Source: Escherichia phage ECp13
Reading direction: 5' to 3' (one strand)
Length of the DNA: 64,000 bases
Sequence record: PP274704.1
Shown: one piece after another, positions 43,273-54,608 of the stretch
Numbering within the stretch: the stretch's first letter is position 1
Layout of the letters: each line of letters begins with the position of its first letter
The notes under the pieces: generated by a model
What the model saw: only the letters and a program-made list of their open reading frames with translations
Database searches by the model: none
Told to the model about the DNA's origin: nothing
Translations under genes and position numbers: made by a program

Positions 43273-43746
43273 ATGAAATCATATGCTCAATTTTTAAATG
43301 AAGCGGTGTTAAATGAAGCATCTAGCACCGAAATTCAAGCCGTCGCAAAAGCAGCCATTGCAGCGGGTAAATATTCCTATAAAGATGCTTCTGACGAATC
43401 ACGATTCCAATTTGCTCGCGACATGAAAGCAGAAGGATTTACGGGAAATGCGGTTAGTATGGCCTGGAAAAGTCTAGTTGCTACTGGCGCTGCTTTTGCA
43501 AAGGCTTCGGGTAAACCTGCTCCTAAAGCAGATCCTAAAGCTGCACAAGAAAAAAATATCGTTAAAGGAATTATCGCTAAATATGAAGCTATCCTTAAAG
43601 AGCTTTTAGTAATCAAAACCGAAGGCCAAAAGTTAGCCCGTGCTTATAGTTTCAAAGATAATCCACATGTTCACTCTCTTGAGTATGTTGAAGACATTCA
43701 AAAAATTATTAAAGACCGCATTTGGTCTGCTAAACAAATCAAATAA
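43273..43746 (+). CDS. internal-protein-like protein with capsid-targeting-like N-terminus
   Basis: 157-aa ORF; MKSYAQFLNE-A resembles the 10-residue T4 IP targeting sequence ending in an L-x-E cleavage motif; late promoter upstream. Confidence 0.6.
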   Translation: MKSYAQFLNEAVLNEASSTEIQAVAKAAIAAGKYSYKDASDESRFQFARDMKAEGFTGNAVSMAWKSLVATGAAFAKASGKPAPKADPKAAQEKNIVKGIIAKYEAILKELLVIKTEGQKLARAYSFKDNPHVHSLEYVEDIQKIIKDRIWSAKQIK

Positions 43747-43755
43747 CATTCTTAA

Positions 43756-43782
43756 CCCCGACCAAAAGGTTGGGGCTTTTTG
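43756..43782 (+). terminator. intrinsic terminator (second copy of the 43196 hairpin)
   Basis: CCCCGACC-aaaa-GGTTGGGG followed by CTTTTT, 10 nt after the IP-like stop. Confidence 0.65.
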
Positions 43783-43914
43783 GTATCTAGGCCTTTCTGG
43801 ACCTCTCTAGGCATCATTTAGTTTATACCCTTTATAATATATTATCCTATCTTTTAATTGCCCCTCCCTGCCCTAGAATTCCCTAAAAATTTTTAAAAAT
43901 TTTTTCACAAAACT

Positions 43915-43944
43915 ATTTACATCCCTGTTCTTCCATGGTACTAT
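43915..43944 (+). promoter_or_regulatory. early sigma70-type promoter (conserved module TGGTACTATACAACTATCAACT)
   Basis: TTTACA at 43916-43921, 17 bp, TACTAT (43939-43944). Confidence 0.6.
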
Positions 43945-43988
43945 ACAACTATCAACTACTGATACAGAAAAACAACTTGGAGAATGAA

Positions 43989-44252
43989 ATGGATAATTAC
44001 GGCGAACTGTTCAACTTCTTTATGAAATGCGTTTCAGAAGATTTCGGTCGTACAGTGAATGATATTAAAGTTATCGGTCCTGACCATCCGATGTTTGAAA
44101 CTTACGCAGTAATGGGTAATGAAGACGGACAGTGGTATACTGTAAAGGTTGTGATTAACATGTTCACAGCAGAAGGTTATGTTAAACTGTCTTCTAAAGT
44201 TTACCACGATAACGACGAAATCGCAGAAGAATATTTCAATAATATGAAATAA
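43989..44252 (+). CDS. hypothetical protein
   Basis: 87 aa from ATG 43989 (GGAGA RBS 9 nt upstream); track ORF starts further upstream at 43935. Confidence 0.5.
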   Translation: MDNYGELFNFFMKCVSEDFGRTVNDIKVIGPDHPMFETYAVMGNEDGQWYTVKVVINMFTAEGYVKLSSKVYHDNDEIAEEYFNNMK

Positions 44253-44282
44253 GTTTACATAGGCTCATGATTGAGATATTAT
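44253..44282 (+). promoter_or_regulatory. early sigma70-type promoter
   Basis: GTTTAC (44253-44258), 18 bp, TATTAT (44277-44282). Confidence 0.55.
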
Positions 44283-44308
44283 GAGCCTACAATTTGAGGA
44301 AAACCGTT

Positions 44309-44839
44309 ATGTCTCTTTATACCGAACTGAATGAAACTTCCGAAAAATCTTTTGATGATATCTTATCAATAATGCAAAAACAGGTATTAGAACAGCTTAG
44401 TGAAGCCGCAAGCAATGGGCACAAGGCTTGTCGAGTCCAAAGCCCACATCGCCGCATGTATGAACGCCCTCTTATTAATTGGCTAGAAAGCGAAGGTCTT
44501 ACAGTTAAGATTTGCCCTGCTAAATTTGATGTCCCACGTATTCTTAATATTTACTGGGATAAACCGGCTGAGAAATCGGTTGAGAAAAGTGACCCTTGGG
44601 TTGTTAATGTAAAAACATGTGACAGTGGATGCTCACTTGAGGTGTCTGCTGTAATTAAAGGCACTCATGGTGAAAAATCATGGGGTTGGCCTAGTAAAGA
44701 TAAAGAAATCGTGTTAAGTGTAAAAGCTACTAGTATTAGTACTCCTATAGCTAAAAGCATTATCGCCGCCGCCGTTGAAGAAGCTGAACGAATTTGTAAA
44801 ATTAAAAATAGTTTACATCTCTTAAATAGTATGATATAA
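44309..44839 (+). CDS. hypothetical protein
   Basis: 176 aa from ATG 44309 (RBS GAGGAA); track ORF begins at a TTG at 44294. Confidence 0.5.
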   Translation: MSLYTELNETSEKSFDDILSIMQKQVLEQLSEAASNGHKACRVQSPHRRMYERPLINWLESEGLTVKICPAKFDVPRILNIYWDKPAEKSVEKSDPWVVNVKTCDSGCSLEVSAVIKGTHGEKSWGWPSKDKEIVLSVKATSISTPIAKSIIAAAVEEAERICKIKNSLHLLNSMI

Positions 44840-44881
44840 TTCTTCCACAGATTTTATTTTTAATCAACCTAAGGAAATACT

Positions 44882-45475
44882 ATGAACACACTGAAGAAAA
44901 TTGTTGAATTTATTCGCACTAAACTTGGTTCTGCTATGGCTAAAAATCTATCTGTTGAAGAACAGTATACTGCTGCAGCAGCAAAACTGCTTGATAAAAT
45001 TAAAGATCTAAAAACTGCTTCTGTTAAATCTATTAATGAAGAAAAACGTATTCGTGAACTTATTGTCGAAAAGAATCGACAGGCCGAATCAAAAGAGCGT
45101 GAAATTCGTAAACTTCTTTCCGAAGGTCAAGATGTAACAATGCATGCTAAACTCGGTTTACTATATCGTCGAACAGCTGAGCAGTTGACTACTAAGGCTG
45201 ACGGTTATGCTGAAATGCGAATTGAAATCGCCAAGAAAGTAGTTGAGTTAGATGATGCTCGCCAAGAACTTGCAGTTAAATTGGAATATATCCGTGAAAC
45301 TCGTGCAGCAAATGCCCTTGGAATTAGTACTGCCGATGATGTAGTTGAAATTGCAGCACTGACTAAGGTTGATATTGAAGATACTCTTGCTCGAGTTGAA
45401 ACCTTTAACGGTAATATTTCTGGGGTTGAAACTACCTCTGCCGATGTTCAGGAATACATTAATTCTCTGAAATAA
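44882..45475 (+). CDS. coiled-coil protein with PspA/IM30-like architecture
   Basis: 197-aa ORF; N-terminal amphipathic segment then long heptad-rich helices; local resemblance to E. coli PspA (for example LARVETF versus PspA ARFESFE). Confidence 0.45.
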
Positions 45476-45516
45476 TGATAAGGGGCTTCGGCCCCTTATA
45501 CTTGGAGTAAATAGGA

Positions 45517-46131
45517 ATGAAAATGAAAATGCAAAGTGATTTCAATTCAATGTTTGAAGAGTTCCAAAGACAGGTTGATGTTCCAGATCAATTACTAAAT
45601 GCTCTTAAGCGTATGGCAGAAGGACGTAATTACTATTGGGGGTCTTCATATGAAACTGATGAAAGCCTTTCCGGAAGATTTTCTAGAGGTAAAAAGTCTT
45701 TAATACGTCCTGGAATACTCATTAACAGTATTGAATCAATTCATTCATTGACATGTGATTTTGATGTTGAATTTACTGATTTCATTTCTCCTGAATGGAC
45801 AGTTTGTTATTTAAATGACGATTATGATTATCTTGGCGTTTATAGTTTAAGTGACGCATGGTTTAAACGTAATTTACAAAAGTCAAATTTGTTCTATATT
45901 GATACTACGGTAAAATTTCAGGGAAAGAAATATTTCTTTACTCTTATAATTGATTCTGAAACAAAGCATGAAAATAAACGTATTCTTAGTAAAAAGAATA
46001 TCTTAACTATTGTTGATGATCTTTTTGATAAATTCGTGGAAAATCCCAATTTTGAAAGCGATTTATTATTAGAAAAATTTGTTAAGGAATGTAGAGAATA
46101 TGTCAAAGCCATCACTATACCTTCCAAGTAA
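45517..46131 (+). CDS. hypothetical protein
   Basis: 204-aa ORF with GGAG RBS. Confidence 0.5.
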   Translation: MKMKMQSDFNSMFEEFQRQVDVPDQLLNALKRMAEGRNYYWGSSYETDESLSGRFSRGKKSLIRPGILINSIESIHSLTCDFDVEFTDFISPEWTVCYLNDDYDYLGVYSLSDAWFKRNLQKSNLFYIDTTVKFQGKKYFFTLIIDSETKHENKRILSKKNILTIVDDLFDKFVENPNFESDLLLEKFVKECREYVKAITIPSK

Positions 46132-46492
46132 ACCTGTGAAGTATGAATTAAAGCGTCAGATAATTTCTACTGATGTGTTAATAGGTCCTGTGGTAGCTGT
46201 ATCATTTGTGATTTTGCTGATTGCTGGAATGGTTATAGACGTTATGACTGATATTGAATCTGGTGTAATATTTGGAGCAACACTAATTCTTCCATTGGTA
46301 GTTCCGTTTTTATTAGTACCTGTAAATTGGGTAGGATACTGGTATCAAGGAAGACACTATCGTAAACGCGTACGCGAATGGAAAGCTCAGTGTAAAAAGA
46401 TTAAAAAGGAACACCAGCTTAAACTTGATATGTATGAATTTAATGAAATTATGAAATTTGTTAAGGAATCACGATGCAAAAGCCAAAACTAA
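46100..46492 (+). CDS. small membrane protein (2 TM), paralog 1 of 3
   Basis: 130 aa from ATG 46100; two hydrophobic helices; C-terminal motif KFVKESRCK shared with the next two ORFs. Confidence 0.5.
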   Translation: MSKPSLYLPSKPVKYELKRQIISTDVLIGPVVAVSFVILLIAGMVIDVMTDIESGVIFGATLILPLVVPFLLVPVNWVGYWYQGRHYRKRVREWKAQCKKIKKEHQLKLDMYEFNEIMKFVKESRCKSQN

Positions 46493-46836
46493 ATAAAGTT
46501 AAATATTCGTTTCCTGAGGCACTATTAATTCTTGCCGTATCAGCATTTGTAGCTCTTGCAGGTAGTCTTATTGGATTAATGATTGACTGTATTATTTTAA
46601 ACATCGACGGCCCAGTAATTATAGAAGAGGTTTGGAGTGAACTTCGTTATACTATAGCGATTTCATTATTTTCATTCTTTGGTACCATGTTATATTTTCA
46701 TTATGATAATTTTAAAATAAATTGGCAAAGAAAAAAGGATTACAAAATACAATTAAAGGAATATAATAGCTACATGTCTTATATTGAAAATGAATCAATG
46801 AAAGAGTTTGTGAGTGATTGTAGGAAAATCAAATGA
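46474..46836 (+). CDS. small membrane protein (2 TM), paralog 2 of 3
   Basis: 120-aa ORF; two hydrophobic helices; C-terminal EFVSDCRKIK. Confidence 0.5.
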   Translation: MQKPKLNKVKYSFPEALLILAVSAFVALAGSLIGLMIDCIILNIDGPVIIEEVWSELRYTIAISLFSFFGTMLYFHYDNFKINWQRKKDYKIQLKEYNSYMSYIENESMKEFVSDCRKIK

Positions 46837-47321
46837 TTTTAAAAACTCGCTGGTATGATTTAGATGATGGGGACGATGGCATTTCATTTGATAGAGTTGA
46901 CTGGAGCGGCTGTTCTGAAGATACAAAGAAACGATTAATTAGGGAGTTTAGAATGGGATATCAAGCAGTTAAGCCATCTACTGTAACAGATGATAAATTC
47001 GTGTGTATTCAAAATGGCCGTGCTAAGTTAACGAATGCTGATTGGTTTACAGGCAAGAATATGCTTTTATGGTATATCATTAGTCTTCCTGTGTCATCAT
47101 TCGTATTTTATTTCTTTGGAAAAAATCCAATGGATAGAATAGGAGATTGGGCTCTTTTTACTCTGCTTGTTAATATTTTTATAACAGCAGTAATATCAGG
47201 AATATGGTGCGTGTTCATTGAAATGCCATGGCGGTTACGTAGGCAGCAAAAGATTTTTGATGAAAAGAAATATACCCAAAATTTAAATAACTTTATCACT
47301 GAATGCAGGAAATTAAAATGA
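46833..47321 (+). CDS. small membrane protein (2 TM), paralog 3 of 3
   Basis: 162-aa ORF; two hydrophobic helices; C-terminal NFITECRKLK. Confidence 0.5.
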   Translation: MILKTRWYDLDDGDDGISFDRVDWSGCSEDTKKRLIREFRMGYQAVKPSTVTDDKFVCIQNGRAKLTNADWFTGKNMLLWYIISLPVSSFVFYFFGKNPMDRIGDWALFTLLVNIFITAVISGIWCVFIEMPWRLRRQQKIFDEKKYTQNLNNFITECRKLK

Positions 47322-47758
47322 AAACACTATCAGCTGGTATTATCTTTATGACAGAAGATAAAGATTTATTTATGGGACGAGTTACTGGTTCTCGTAAACC
47401 TGGAATGATGGCACATCGCTGGGATATTCCAAAGGGCCGTGTAGAAAGTTCTGATTTGAATGCACTGGAAGCTGCAAAAAGAGAATGCTCAGAAGAGACT
47501 GGTTTTATCGATTATAATTCAGACCTTCTAGAAGACCTAGGTGTATTTAAATATTCTAGTAATAAAGACTTACAGTTATTTTATTATACGATTCCAGTAG
47601 AGCATGAGATGTTTAGAAATTGCCATTGCGAGTCTTATTTTGAAAATAAAGATGGTGTTATGATTCCAGAGATGGATGCTTTTGCCCTTATTCCTCGTAC
47701 TCAGTGGCAATATGTGATGGGTCCTTCACTTTACCGAATAATGAACAGCCTCTTTTAA
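47303..47758 (+). CDS. nudE: Nudix hydrolase NudE
   Basis: Nudix box GRVESSDLNALEAAKRECSEETGF; directly upstream of e as T4 e.1/nudE; start may be the ATG at 47318. Confidence 0.85.
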   Translation: MQEIKMKTLSAGIIFMTEDKDLFMGRVTGSRKPGMMAHRWDIPKGRVESSDLNALEAAKRECSEETGFIDYNSDLLEDLGVFKYSSNKDLQLFYYTIPVEHEMFRNCHCESYFENKDGVMIPEMDAFALIPRTQWQYVMGPSLYRIMNSLF

Positions 47759-48289
<531 letters not shown>

Positions 48290-48293
48290 AGTT

Positions 48294-48323
48294 GTTTACT
48301 TTCTCCTAGAATTGTGATAGTAT
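48294..48323 (+). promoter_or_regulatory. early sigma70-type promoter for denV
   Basis: GTTTAC (48294-48299), 18 bp, TAGTAT (48318-48323); 25 nt upstream of denV ATG. Confidence 0.55.
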
Positions 48324-48348
48324 ATTAACAGTTACTTGGAGGGATAAA

Positions 48349-48765
48349 ATGACTCGTATTAATTTGACTTTAGTATCTGAACTTGCTGATCAACATTTAA
48401 TCGCAGAATACCGTGAACTGCCGCGTGTTTTTGGTATAGTTCGTAAACATGTTGCAAATGGTAAGCGGGTTAAAGATTTTAAAATATCTTCCGAGTTTAT
48501 TTTAGGTTCTGGTCATGTCACGTTCTTTTACGATAAGTTAGAATTTTTGCGAAAGCGTCAATCAGACATTATAACGGAATGCTTAAAACGTGGGTTCAGT
48601 ATAAAAGATACTGAAGTTCCTGACATCAGCGATATTCCAGCAGAATGGAAAAATGATTATAATCCATGCAAATCAGCTATTAAATTGAGCCAACAACGAC
48701 TCGATGAAAAAATTTTAATGAAGCCATACTGGTATAAATACTACGGTAAAACTATTTACATTTAA
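48349..48765 (+). CDS. denV: endonuclease V (pyrimidine dimer DNA glycosylase)
   Basis: 138-aa [31 protein letters not shown]...; length and sequence recognised as T4 endonuclease V. Confidence 0.92.
48733..48740 (+). promoter_or_regulatory. late promoter (TATAAATA) inside 3' end of denV, serving the downstream IP gene
   Basis: TATAAATA 35 nt upstream of the IP ATG at 48775. Confidence 0.55.
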
Positions 48766-54017: not shown

Positions 54018-54026
54018 GAAGGTGAT

Positions 54027-54608
54027 ATGGCGAGTTTAATTTTTACTTATGCAGCAATGAATGCTGGAAAATCTGCTTCTCTTTTGACTGCTGCGCATAA
54101 TTATAAAGAACGCGGAATGGGTGTATTAGTTCTTAAGCCTGCTATTGATACTCGCGATTCTGTCTGTGAAGTCGTTTCTCGCATTGGAATTAAACAGGAA
54201 GCGAATATTATTACGGATGATATGGATATTTTTGAGTTCTATAAATGGGCTGAAGCACAAAAAGATATTCATTGCGTATTTGTAGATGAAGCTCAGTTTT
54301 TAAAAACTGAACAGGTGCATCAATTAAGCCGAATTGTTGATACATATAATGTTCCTGTTATGGCTTATGGGCTAAGGACCGATTTCGCTGGAAAATTATT
54401 TGAAGGTTCTAAAGAACTTTTGGCGATTGCAGATAAACTTATTGAACTAAAAGCAGTTTGTCATTGCGGTAAAAAAGCGATTATGACAGCTCGATTAATG
54501 GAAGATGGAACACCAGTTAAAGAAGGCAATCAAATCTGTATTGGTGATGAAATTTATGTTTCTTTGTGTAGAAAACATTGGAATGAATTAACTAAAAAGC
54601 TCGGTTAG
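54027..54608 (+). CDS. tk: thymidine kinase
   Basis: 193-aa ORF with P-loop (AMNAGKS) and C-terminal Cys cluster; T4 Tk length. Confidence 0.92.
   Translation: MASLIFTYAAMNAGKSASLLTAAHNYKERGMGVLVLKPAIDTRDSVCEVVSRIGIKQEANIITDDMDIFEFYKWAEAQKDIHCVFVDEAQFLKTEQVHQLSRIVDTYNVPVMAYGLRTDFAGKLFEGSKELLAIADKLIELKAVCHCGKKAIMTARLMEDGTPVKEGNQICIGDEIYVSLCRKHWNELTKKLG

Follow-up and report, generated by a model that had tools for sequence, protein, structure and literature searches.

Scaffold proteins of the PspA family usually work with small membrane proteins that are specific to a lineage, as in Bacillus subtilis, where LiaI anchors LiaH. Small membrane proteins of phage T4 serve in superinfection exclusion (Imm and Sp) and in lysis timing (RI, RIII and the t holin). 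Pairs of PspA and a small membrane anchor are catalogued in comparative studies of phage shock protein (Psp) systems (PMC9239133, PMC11237479), and PspC, a small polytopic membrane protein, binds PspA through its cytoplasmic C-terminal domain (PMC5596341). No function has been assigned to the e.2-e.8 block of T4, although its sequence has been available for decades. In this study, 64,000 nucleotides (nt) of Escherichia phage ECp13 (PP274704.1; hereafter the window) were analysed, in which the genes e.4, e.3 and e.2 form a tandem array of translationally coupled, small two-segment membrane proteins. These three proteins and the soluble product of the preceding gene, e.5, carry a common short motif at the end of their tails, and nearly all proteins with this motif are encoded just downstream of e.6, on the same strand, in Straboviridae. 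By analogy with the Psp and Lia systems, the tail may dock e.5, e.4, e.3 and e.2 to a shared cytoplasmic partner, most likely the probably PspA-like e.6, with the hairpin membrane proteins as anchors or sensors; this reading is tentative, and our confidence in it falls short of even.

The window is from a Tequatrovirus, and its bases 45400-47900 show 95-97% identity to Shigella phage pSs-1 and to some 500 further T4-like genomes, with more than 490 Tequatrovirus genomes in this range. The initial annotation had described three consecutive overlapping open reading frames (ORFs), which were found exactly as described, with overlaps of 19 and 4 nt, on the plus strand at 46100-46492 (130 residues), 46474-46836 (120 residues) and 46833-47321 (162 residues). 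These are real genes, namely T4 e.4, e.3 and e.2, and belong to the early region of a T4-type phage. Each protein matches a PHROG family over its full length (e.4, PHROG 2604, E = 1e-70; e.3, PHROG 2330, E = 6e-57; e.2, PHROG 2203, E = 1e-75) and the three are 77-95% identical to their Tequatrovirus orthologues. Public Tequatrovirus records give the ORFs the same names, in the same order between e.5 and nudE; the 1993 T4 record L13089 lists them as msp5 (e.4), msp6 (e.3) and msp7 (e.2), with msp3 for e.6, and T4 records describe e.2, e.3 and e.4 as 'conserved hypothetical, predicted membrane protein'. The order on the plus strand is e.6, e.5, e.4, e.3, e.2, nudE, e (lysozyme) and denV, with overlaps of 32, 19, 4 and 4 nt between successive genes from e.5 through nudE.

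The motif, phi-E-x-F-[IV]-x-x-C-[RK], stands at the end of a basic, predicted cytoplasmic tail. The C-terminal strings quoted in the initial annotation for e.4, e.3 and e.2 (KFVKESRCK, EFVSDCRKIK and NFITECRKLK, respectively) are correct, and with a position-specific matrix they score far above chance: e.4 reaches 15.4 bits, e.3 20.2 bits and e.2 25.0 bits, against a maximum of 8.0 bits over 13,607 positions in the other plus-strand ORFs of the window. In the initial annotation, the motif had been presented as a property of three genes; it is present in all three, but the soluble e.5 also ends in it (...LEKFVKECREYVKAITIPSK, in which EKFVKECRE scores 22.5 bits), and therefore four consecutive genes carry it. 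The motif occupies residues 185-193 of e.5 (LEKFVKECR; nt 46069-46095), 117-125 of e.4 (IMKFVKESR; nt 46448-46474), 109-117 of e.3 (MKEFVSDCR; nt 46798-46824) and 151-159 of e.2 (LNNFITECR; nt 47283-47309). e.5 itself is encoded at 45517-46131 on the plus strand (204 residues; PHROG 2607, E = 4e-110) and shows no hydrophobic segment in its hydropathy profile. In a search of all six-frame ORFs of 40 residues or more in the 64-kb window, the strict pattern [FWY][IVL]..C[RK] was found four times: at the C-termini of e.5, e.3 and e.2, and near the C-terminus of thymidine kinase (YVSLCRK; 54018-54608), a protein 99% identical to T4 tk, where the match was judged to be due to chance. e.4 has Ser at the Cys position and nevertheless reaches the score given above. 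The run of motif-bearing genes in this phage ends at its 3' side with the Nudix hydrolase gene nudE (47318-47758, plus strand; Pfam NUDIX, E = 7.5e-13), whose ATG at 47318 overlaps e.2 by 4 nt in a start-stop arrangement (ATGA) and whose product is without the motif, with a top matrix score of 2.9 bits.

The motif was then catalogued in 52 distinct Straboviridae loci, which together with the window make 53 regions, and at least one motif protein is present in each of them. In total, 146 distinct motif proteins in at least 27 BLAST clusters were counted, 76 with and 70 without hydrophobic segments. Their consensus has L, I or V at position -3 from the Phe, E at -2, F at 0 (141/146), I or V at +1, C at +4 (118/146) and R (129) or K (17) at +5 (146/146). 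In most cases 0-15 residues separate the motif from the C-terminus; for membership of the set, it had to fall in roughly the last 30 residues of a protein encoded 3' of e.6 on the same strand. Soluble e.5-like proteins, hairpin proteins and small soluble proteins also end in the motif in Mosigvirus, Dhakavirus, Kanagawavirus, Jiaodavirus, Moonvirus, Biquartavirus, Ishigurovirus and Pseudotevenvirus. On the coding strand of the 52 loci, 139 C-terminal strict matches lie downstream of e.6 and one upstream, compared with four and six on the opposite strand; these counts are not independent events because the loci are related. In 50 of the 52 loci, the next gene after e.6 codes for a soluble, e.5-like protein with F-[IV]-x-x-C at its end, and in the two exceptions (L014 and L042) the first gene after e.6 is truncated or split. 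In two loci (L048 and L049) the motif of this gene has the degenerate form F-[IV]-x-x-C, and in CC2-like Aeromonas phages the form F-[IV]-x-Y-C-I.

The strength of this conservation, together with the presence of two or more motif proteins in most loci and a translational coupling that suits stoichiometric complexes, is what one would expect if the motif were a self-assembly element, by which e.5 and the hairpin proteins join, through their C-terminal helices, in a hetero-oligomeric membrane complex independent of e.6, with a metal possibly bound jointly by the one conserved Cys that each chain contributes. However, ten of the catalogued regions contain only one motif protein, and the e.4 lineage mostly lacks the canonical Cys, which is usually replaced by S, I, V or M. 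The amphipathicity of the motif helix is not consistently higher than that of shuffled controls, and no metal-binding family was matched. Self-assembly of this kind is therefore regarded as improbable.

In the window, the Shine-Dalgarno sequences of the downstream genes (AAGGAA or AGGAAA) lie within the motif codons, namely those for VKE in e.5 and e.4 and for CRK in e.3 and e.2, and the starts and stops of neighbouring genes overlap; a DNA-level artefact was therefore possible. The motif would in that case be a nucleic-acid by-product, either the Shine-Dalgarno or coupling region of the next gene or a recombination linker at gene boundaries. Against this, the start codon of the next gene follows the Phe codon at unequal distances (18, 23 and 27 nt), and synonymous codons are found at every conserved residue: TTT or TTC for Phe, TGT or TGC for Cys, ATT, ATC, ATA, GTT, GTG, GTC or GTA for Ile/Val, and all of AGA, AGG, CGA, CGC, CGT and CGG for Arg. 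The motif is also kept before an intergenic gap or 31 residues ahead of the stop (Jia 127, Biq 262, Ish 043 and Pse 256), and its upstream part, phi-E-x-F-[IV], is without Shine-Dalgarno content. Because of the synonymous variation, the unequal spacing and the retention of the motif without an adjoining downstream gene, selection is placed on the protein; a Shine-Dalgarno or coupling artefact is largely refuted, and a nucleic-acid origin in either form is considered very improbable. Within Tequatrovirus, the tails are 94-96% identical compared with 56-88% for the membrane segments: the constrained part of e.4, e.3 and e.2 is the predicted cytoplasmic tail, and the membrane segments drift fast.

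The topology of the three proteins was assessed from Kyte-Doolittle hydropathy with a 19-residue window. e.4 has two strong hydrophobic segments, transmembrane segment 1 (TM1) at residues 24-46 (nt 46169-46237) and TM2 at residues 54-79 (nt 46259-46336), followed by a basic tail (residues 80-130). e.3 has a strong TM1 (residues 15-41), a weaker, aromatic-rich TM2 (residues 57-76) and a tail of residues 77-120, whereas e.2 begins with a soluble domain of 75 residues, followed by TM1 (residues 76-96), TM2 (residues 105-130) and the tail (residues 131-162). The two hydrophobic helices per protein of the initial annotation are thus found as a strong pair in e.4 and as a pair in e.2, while the second segment of e.3 is weaker and passes the threshold in several homologues. 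The net charges of the N-terminus, loop and tail are +4, -3 and +9 in e.4 and +4, -4 and +3 in e.3, and the tail of e.2 has a charge of +6. By the positive-inside rule, these charges indicate an N-in/C-in hairpin; a cytoplasmic location is therefore predicted for the tails and the motif, and e.4, e.3 and e.2 are predicted to be small inner-membrane hairpins. The three share an architecture of basic N-terminus, transmembrane segment, short acidic loop, transmembrane segment, basic tail and motif.

This common architecture agrees with the earlier description of the three proteins as paralogous, which was examined by pairwise and profile alignment. Smith-Waterman z-scores against shuffles were 3.75 (e.4-e.3), 4.0 (e.3-e.2) and 1.6 (e.4-e.2). 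Orthologues were gathered from about 55 Straboviridae loci and clustered, which gave e.4 (15 sequences), e.3 (12), e.2 (12) and two more membrane clusters, and the family profiles were compared by hhalign. The probabilities were 73% for e.4-e.3 (39 columns), 87% for e.3-e.2 (18 columns) and 2.6% for e.4-e.2, with reversed-sequence controls at or below 9%. The aligned columns are restricted to the last 18-39 residues, and no similarity between the membrane segments was detected by the family-profile comparison. The similarity beyond composition that had been anticipated among the three is thus found in the tail only, in the pairs e.4-e.3 and e.3-e.2, and elsewhere the proteins are not alignable; whole-length paralogy is unsupported, and significant similarity does not extend to all three pairs. 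The soluble motif families align to the same C-terminal columns as the membrane families, and since soluble proteins equally carry the motif, the motif alone is no proof of whole-gene duplication. Common descent of the whole e.4 and e.3 genes is plausible; an M-x-K-P-x-L start common to both in Tequatrovirus and Mosigvirus is suggestive only.

The number of membrane members varies across related phages, with approximate counts of none (18 regions), one (10), two (8), three (11) and four (6). The hairpin proteins are accessory, because 18 of the 53 regions have no membrane member. Identity of the whole proteins within Tequatrovirus is 98.5-100% for e.6, 91-99% for e.5, 84-95% for e.4, 82-93% for e.3 and 77-88% for e.2. 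Orthologues of e.4 were found at 14 loci in several genera, and when 1.84 billion representative proteins were searched exhaustively by HMMER with the e.3 profile, only seven clusters reached E <= 1e-3: the individual membrane families are narrow and fast-evolving.

These properties would also suit hairpin proteins that act as independent effectors on a target in the host or in a superinfecting phage, with a tail that binds a host cytoplasmic factor and an adjacency to e.6 that is historical; possible roles are superinfection exclusion as for Imm and Sp, lysis-inhibition signalling as for RI and RIII, or the blocking of membrane-acting abortive infection. An early position, inner-membrane topology and fast divergence of membrane segments and loops are typical of proteins at the phage-host interface, and the identity of 77-95% compared with that of e.6, the variation of copy number between and within genera, the narrowness of the e.3 family and the dispensability of e.2 in laboratory T4, as for a conditionally useful accessory gene, all fit such a role. 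Like Imm, Sp, RI, RIII and t, the hairpin proteins are small early or middle inner-membrane phage proteins, dispensable under laboratory conditions and variable from one T4-like phage to another. However, they have no Pfam or PHROG match to any of these at E <= 1, and no similarity to holin, antiholin or defence-related models; PADLOC gave no family at E <= 1 for e.6, e.5, e.4, e.3 or e.2, and Pfam and NCBIfam gave no meaningful family match for e.4, e.3 and e.2. To our knowledge, an F-[IV]-x-x-C-R tail is not known in Imm, Sp, RI, RIII or t, and in the window the motif is confined to e.5-e.2, the chance match in thymidine kinase aside. Independent effectors would also leave unexplained why the same tail occurs on soluble proteins of unrelated sequence and why the genes lie directly downstream of e.6 across distant genera. 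With these points on either side, we give this explanation slightly less credence than the docking reading.

The partner favoured in the docking reading is e.6 (44882-45475, plus strand; 197 residues), an all-helical protein conserved across Straboviridae (1106 phage records, 30-100% identity) and the invariant upstream neighbour of the motif-bearing genes. When a nine-sequence e.6 profile was compared with PDB sequences, the top match was Vipp1 (8qhv; E = 0.048), collinear over residues 4-140, and more Vipp1 entries ranked next. An AlphaFold2 (AF2) model from 41 homologues, with a predicted local distance difference test (pLDDT) value of 78.7, has one helix at the N-terminus, then a long helical hairpin, and ends in three short helices. 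In a Foldseek search of this model against the PDB, Vipp1 took ranks 1-9 (E of 1e-3 to 4e-2, probability 0.98-1.0), with archaeal ESCRT-III and PspA lower in the list. Eight of the 41 homologues match Pfam PspA_IM30 (PF04012) below the gathering threshold (best E = 7e-5), one matches TIGR02977 (E = 1.9e-4) and one is labelled 'phage shock protein A' by the Joint Genome Institute (JGI). Two results speak against a PspA-like e.6: the e.6 of the window has no Pfam match at E < 1, and hhalign of the e.6 profile with the single E. coli PspA sequence gave 1.7%. On the profile and model evidence, e.6 is probably a true PspA/IM30 relative, that is, a divergent PspA/Vipp1 protein with an ESCRT-III fold; as a minimum, it is a conserved protein that combines a helical hairpin with an amphipathic N-terminus.

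Among possible partners of the tail, e.6 is the best candidate: a motif-bearing e.5-like gene accompanies it almost without exception, while different genera have different genes on its upstream side. In the proposed mechanism, the tail would be a short docking helix that ties all motif proteins to one cytoplasmic partner, most likely e.6 as a divergent PspA/Vipp1-type membrane-stabilizing scaffold. e.5 would be the constant soluble partner, and the hairpin proteins, which vary in number from zero to four, would serve in the membrane as its anchors or sensors, either recruiting e.6 to the inner membrane or regulating it there. Such a module would protect membrane integrity and the proton-motive force during infection, and could thereby affect lysis timing or the tolerance of membrane damage. 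In its broadest form, the proposal is that T4-type phages carry their own Psp-like membrane-maintenance module, with e.6 as the scaffold and e.5, e.4, e.3 and e.2 as adaptors; this we put forward as a speculation that is, on balance, rather unlikely. In that module, fast-evolving adaptors of variable copy number would plug into the e.6 scaffold via the short linear tail motif, and the membrane members would determine the place or the time of its deployment on the inner membrane of the host.

The comparison with the bacterial systems shows likenesses as well as differences. As in PspB and PspC, the hairpin proteins are of about 120 residues, are predicted to lie in the inner membrane and to have a cytoplasmic C-terminal helical tail, and are encoded as several small membrane partners in a row beside a PspA-type gene (here, probably, e.6). 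As in the LiaI-LiaH pair, a PspA-family scaffold would be tethered by small membrane proteins that are particular to the lineage and encoded next to it. In the phage, however, the soluble e.5 sits between e.6 and the membrane genes, and what unites the set is a C-terminal motif found on soluble proteins as well; we know of no description of such a shared tail for Lia or Psp partners.

Several observations weigh against docking to a PspA-like e.6. No similarity of e.4, e.3 or e.2 to PspB, PspC or LiaI was detected (Pfam and NCBIfam; no PspB/PspC match at E <= 1), and the motif matrix finds the tails of E. coli PspC and PspB, as well as the C-terminus of e.6, at background. The 18 regions without a membrane member have e.6 and an e.5-like gene all the same. 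e.2 is in pieces in the T4 reference NC_000866 (locus L012, 9473-9961), although intact with 162 residues in the window, and is missing from a Tequatrovirus contig in which e.3 abuts nudE (L014, 7594-8393). Moreover, synteny in compact phage genomes can reflect shared ancestry and not interaction. Two resemblances of the tail were also tried and rejected. A mimicry of the e.6 C-terminal helix (EYINSLK) is seen by eye, but the best matrix score in e.6 lies elsewhere and not at the C-terminus; likewise, the PspA-binding tail of E. coli PspC (MERYVTSD) is alike by eye, but scores -2.95 bits, with about one such match expected per protein.

The genes themselves have long been annotated; what appears to be new is the set defined by the tail motif and the association of this set with a probably PspA-like neighbour. 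Searches of the literature for the gene names, or for PspA together with T4-like taxa, returned nothing relevant on the e genes or on a T4-type PspA-like protein, and no published description of the motif family or of its link to e.6 was found. A word search of PMC11237479 gave no discussion of Psp members encoded by phages. Three anonymous predicted membrane proteins are thereby recast as part of a motif-defined set tied to one conserved neighbour. If the tails do dock to a phage PspA-like scaffold, phages would themselves encode a form of membrane repair on the ESCRT-III/PspA principle, and there would be a rationale for the way in which T4-like phages maintain an energized inner membrane until the holin triggers; the motif would also be a simple sequence tag for further partners in the accessory regions of Straboviridae. 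If the tail instead targets a host factor, it would still be a compact, transferable recognition motif.

Upstream of e.6, a sigma-70-type early-promoter-like site (TTTACA-17-TATAAT with TG) lies at 44812-44840 on the plus strand. It is a consensus match only, with 11 of 12 positions the top match in a scan of 43500-48500, and L13089 marks -35 and -10 signals at the corresponding place, 5' of msp3. Between e.6 and e.5, a sequence and terminator scan revealed a GC-rich hairpin with a UUCG loop (AAGGGGC-TTCG-GCCCCTT; 45478-45499, plus strand), at the site of which L13089 has a 'putative stem_loop'. The hairpin, a putative attenuator or mRNA stabilizer, is followed by the GGAG Shine-Dalgarno sequence of e.5 (hairpin and Shine-Dalgarno region, 45478-45515). 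GGAG is the sequence cut by the RegB endoribonuclease in T4 early mRNAs. Hairpin and GGAG together could set the stoichiometry or the timing of e.6 and e.5, and under the docking mechanism the hairpin could give a high ratio of e.6 to its partners. Downstream of nudE, the lysozyme gene e lies at 47795-48289 on the plus strand.

Some labels in public records were not supported by Pfam, NCBIfam or PHROG searches: 'sulfurtransferase' and 'DNA primase' (for e.3/e.4 and an e.3 homologue), 'site-specific RNA endonuclease' (for e.5) and 'host specificity protein', the label of e.6 in many records. For e.5, the database lists Pfam PF26876. Its AF2 model is poor (pLDDT 62.7), and the top Foldseek matches, small alarmone synthetases of the RelQ/RelP type, were rejected: with TM-scores of about 0.15, a probability of at most 0.51 and a low-confidence model, they are no evidence of the e.5 fold. 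In Shigella phage vB_SsoM_113 (L001, 3118-4092), e.5 is fused in frame to e.4 in a protein of 324 residues, caused by one base fewer in the run GAAAAATTT just 5' of the e.5 motif (window 46070-46100), so that the motif of e.5 is lost and that of e.4 is kept; either natural variation or a sequencing error in the homopolymer may be the cause.

The soluble N-terminal domain of e.2 (WYDLDDGDDGISF; window 46833-47057) resembles by eye the starts of small soluble motif proteins from other genera, such as YIEDDGGDGTMF and LEIDGADGTTCI (L010, 5582-5824; L006, 6850-7128, respectively). This hints that e.2 may be a small soluble motif protein with an inserted hairpin; against it, the likeness was not picked up by hhalign. 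A second tandem family, of small soluble proteins of 65-118 residues ending in G-x-W-V-S-S-S-x-x-C, is absent from the window and is interleaved with the motif proteins in the same region of Mosigvirus, Dhakavirus, Kanagawavirus, Moonvirus and others, as seen at L004 (3357-4151), L005 (3351-4358), L006 (5710-6788) and many other loci.

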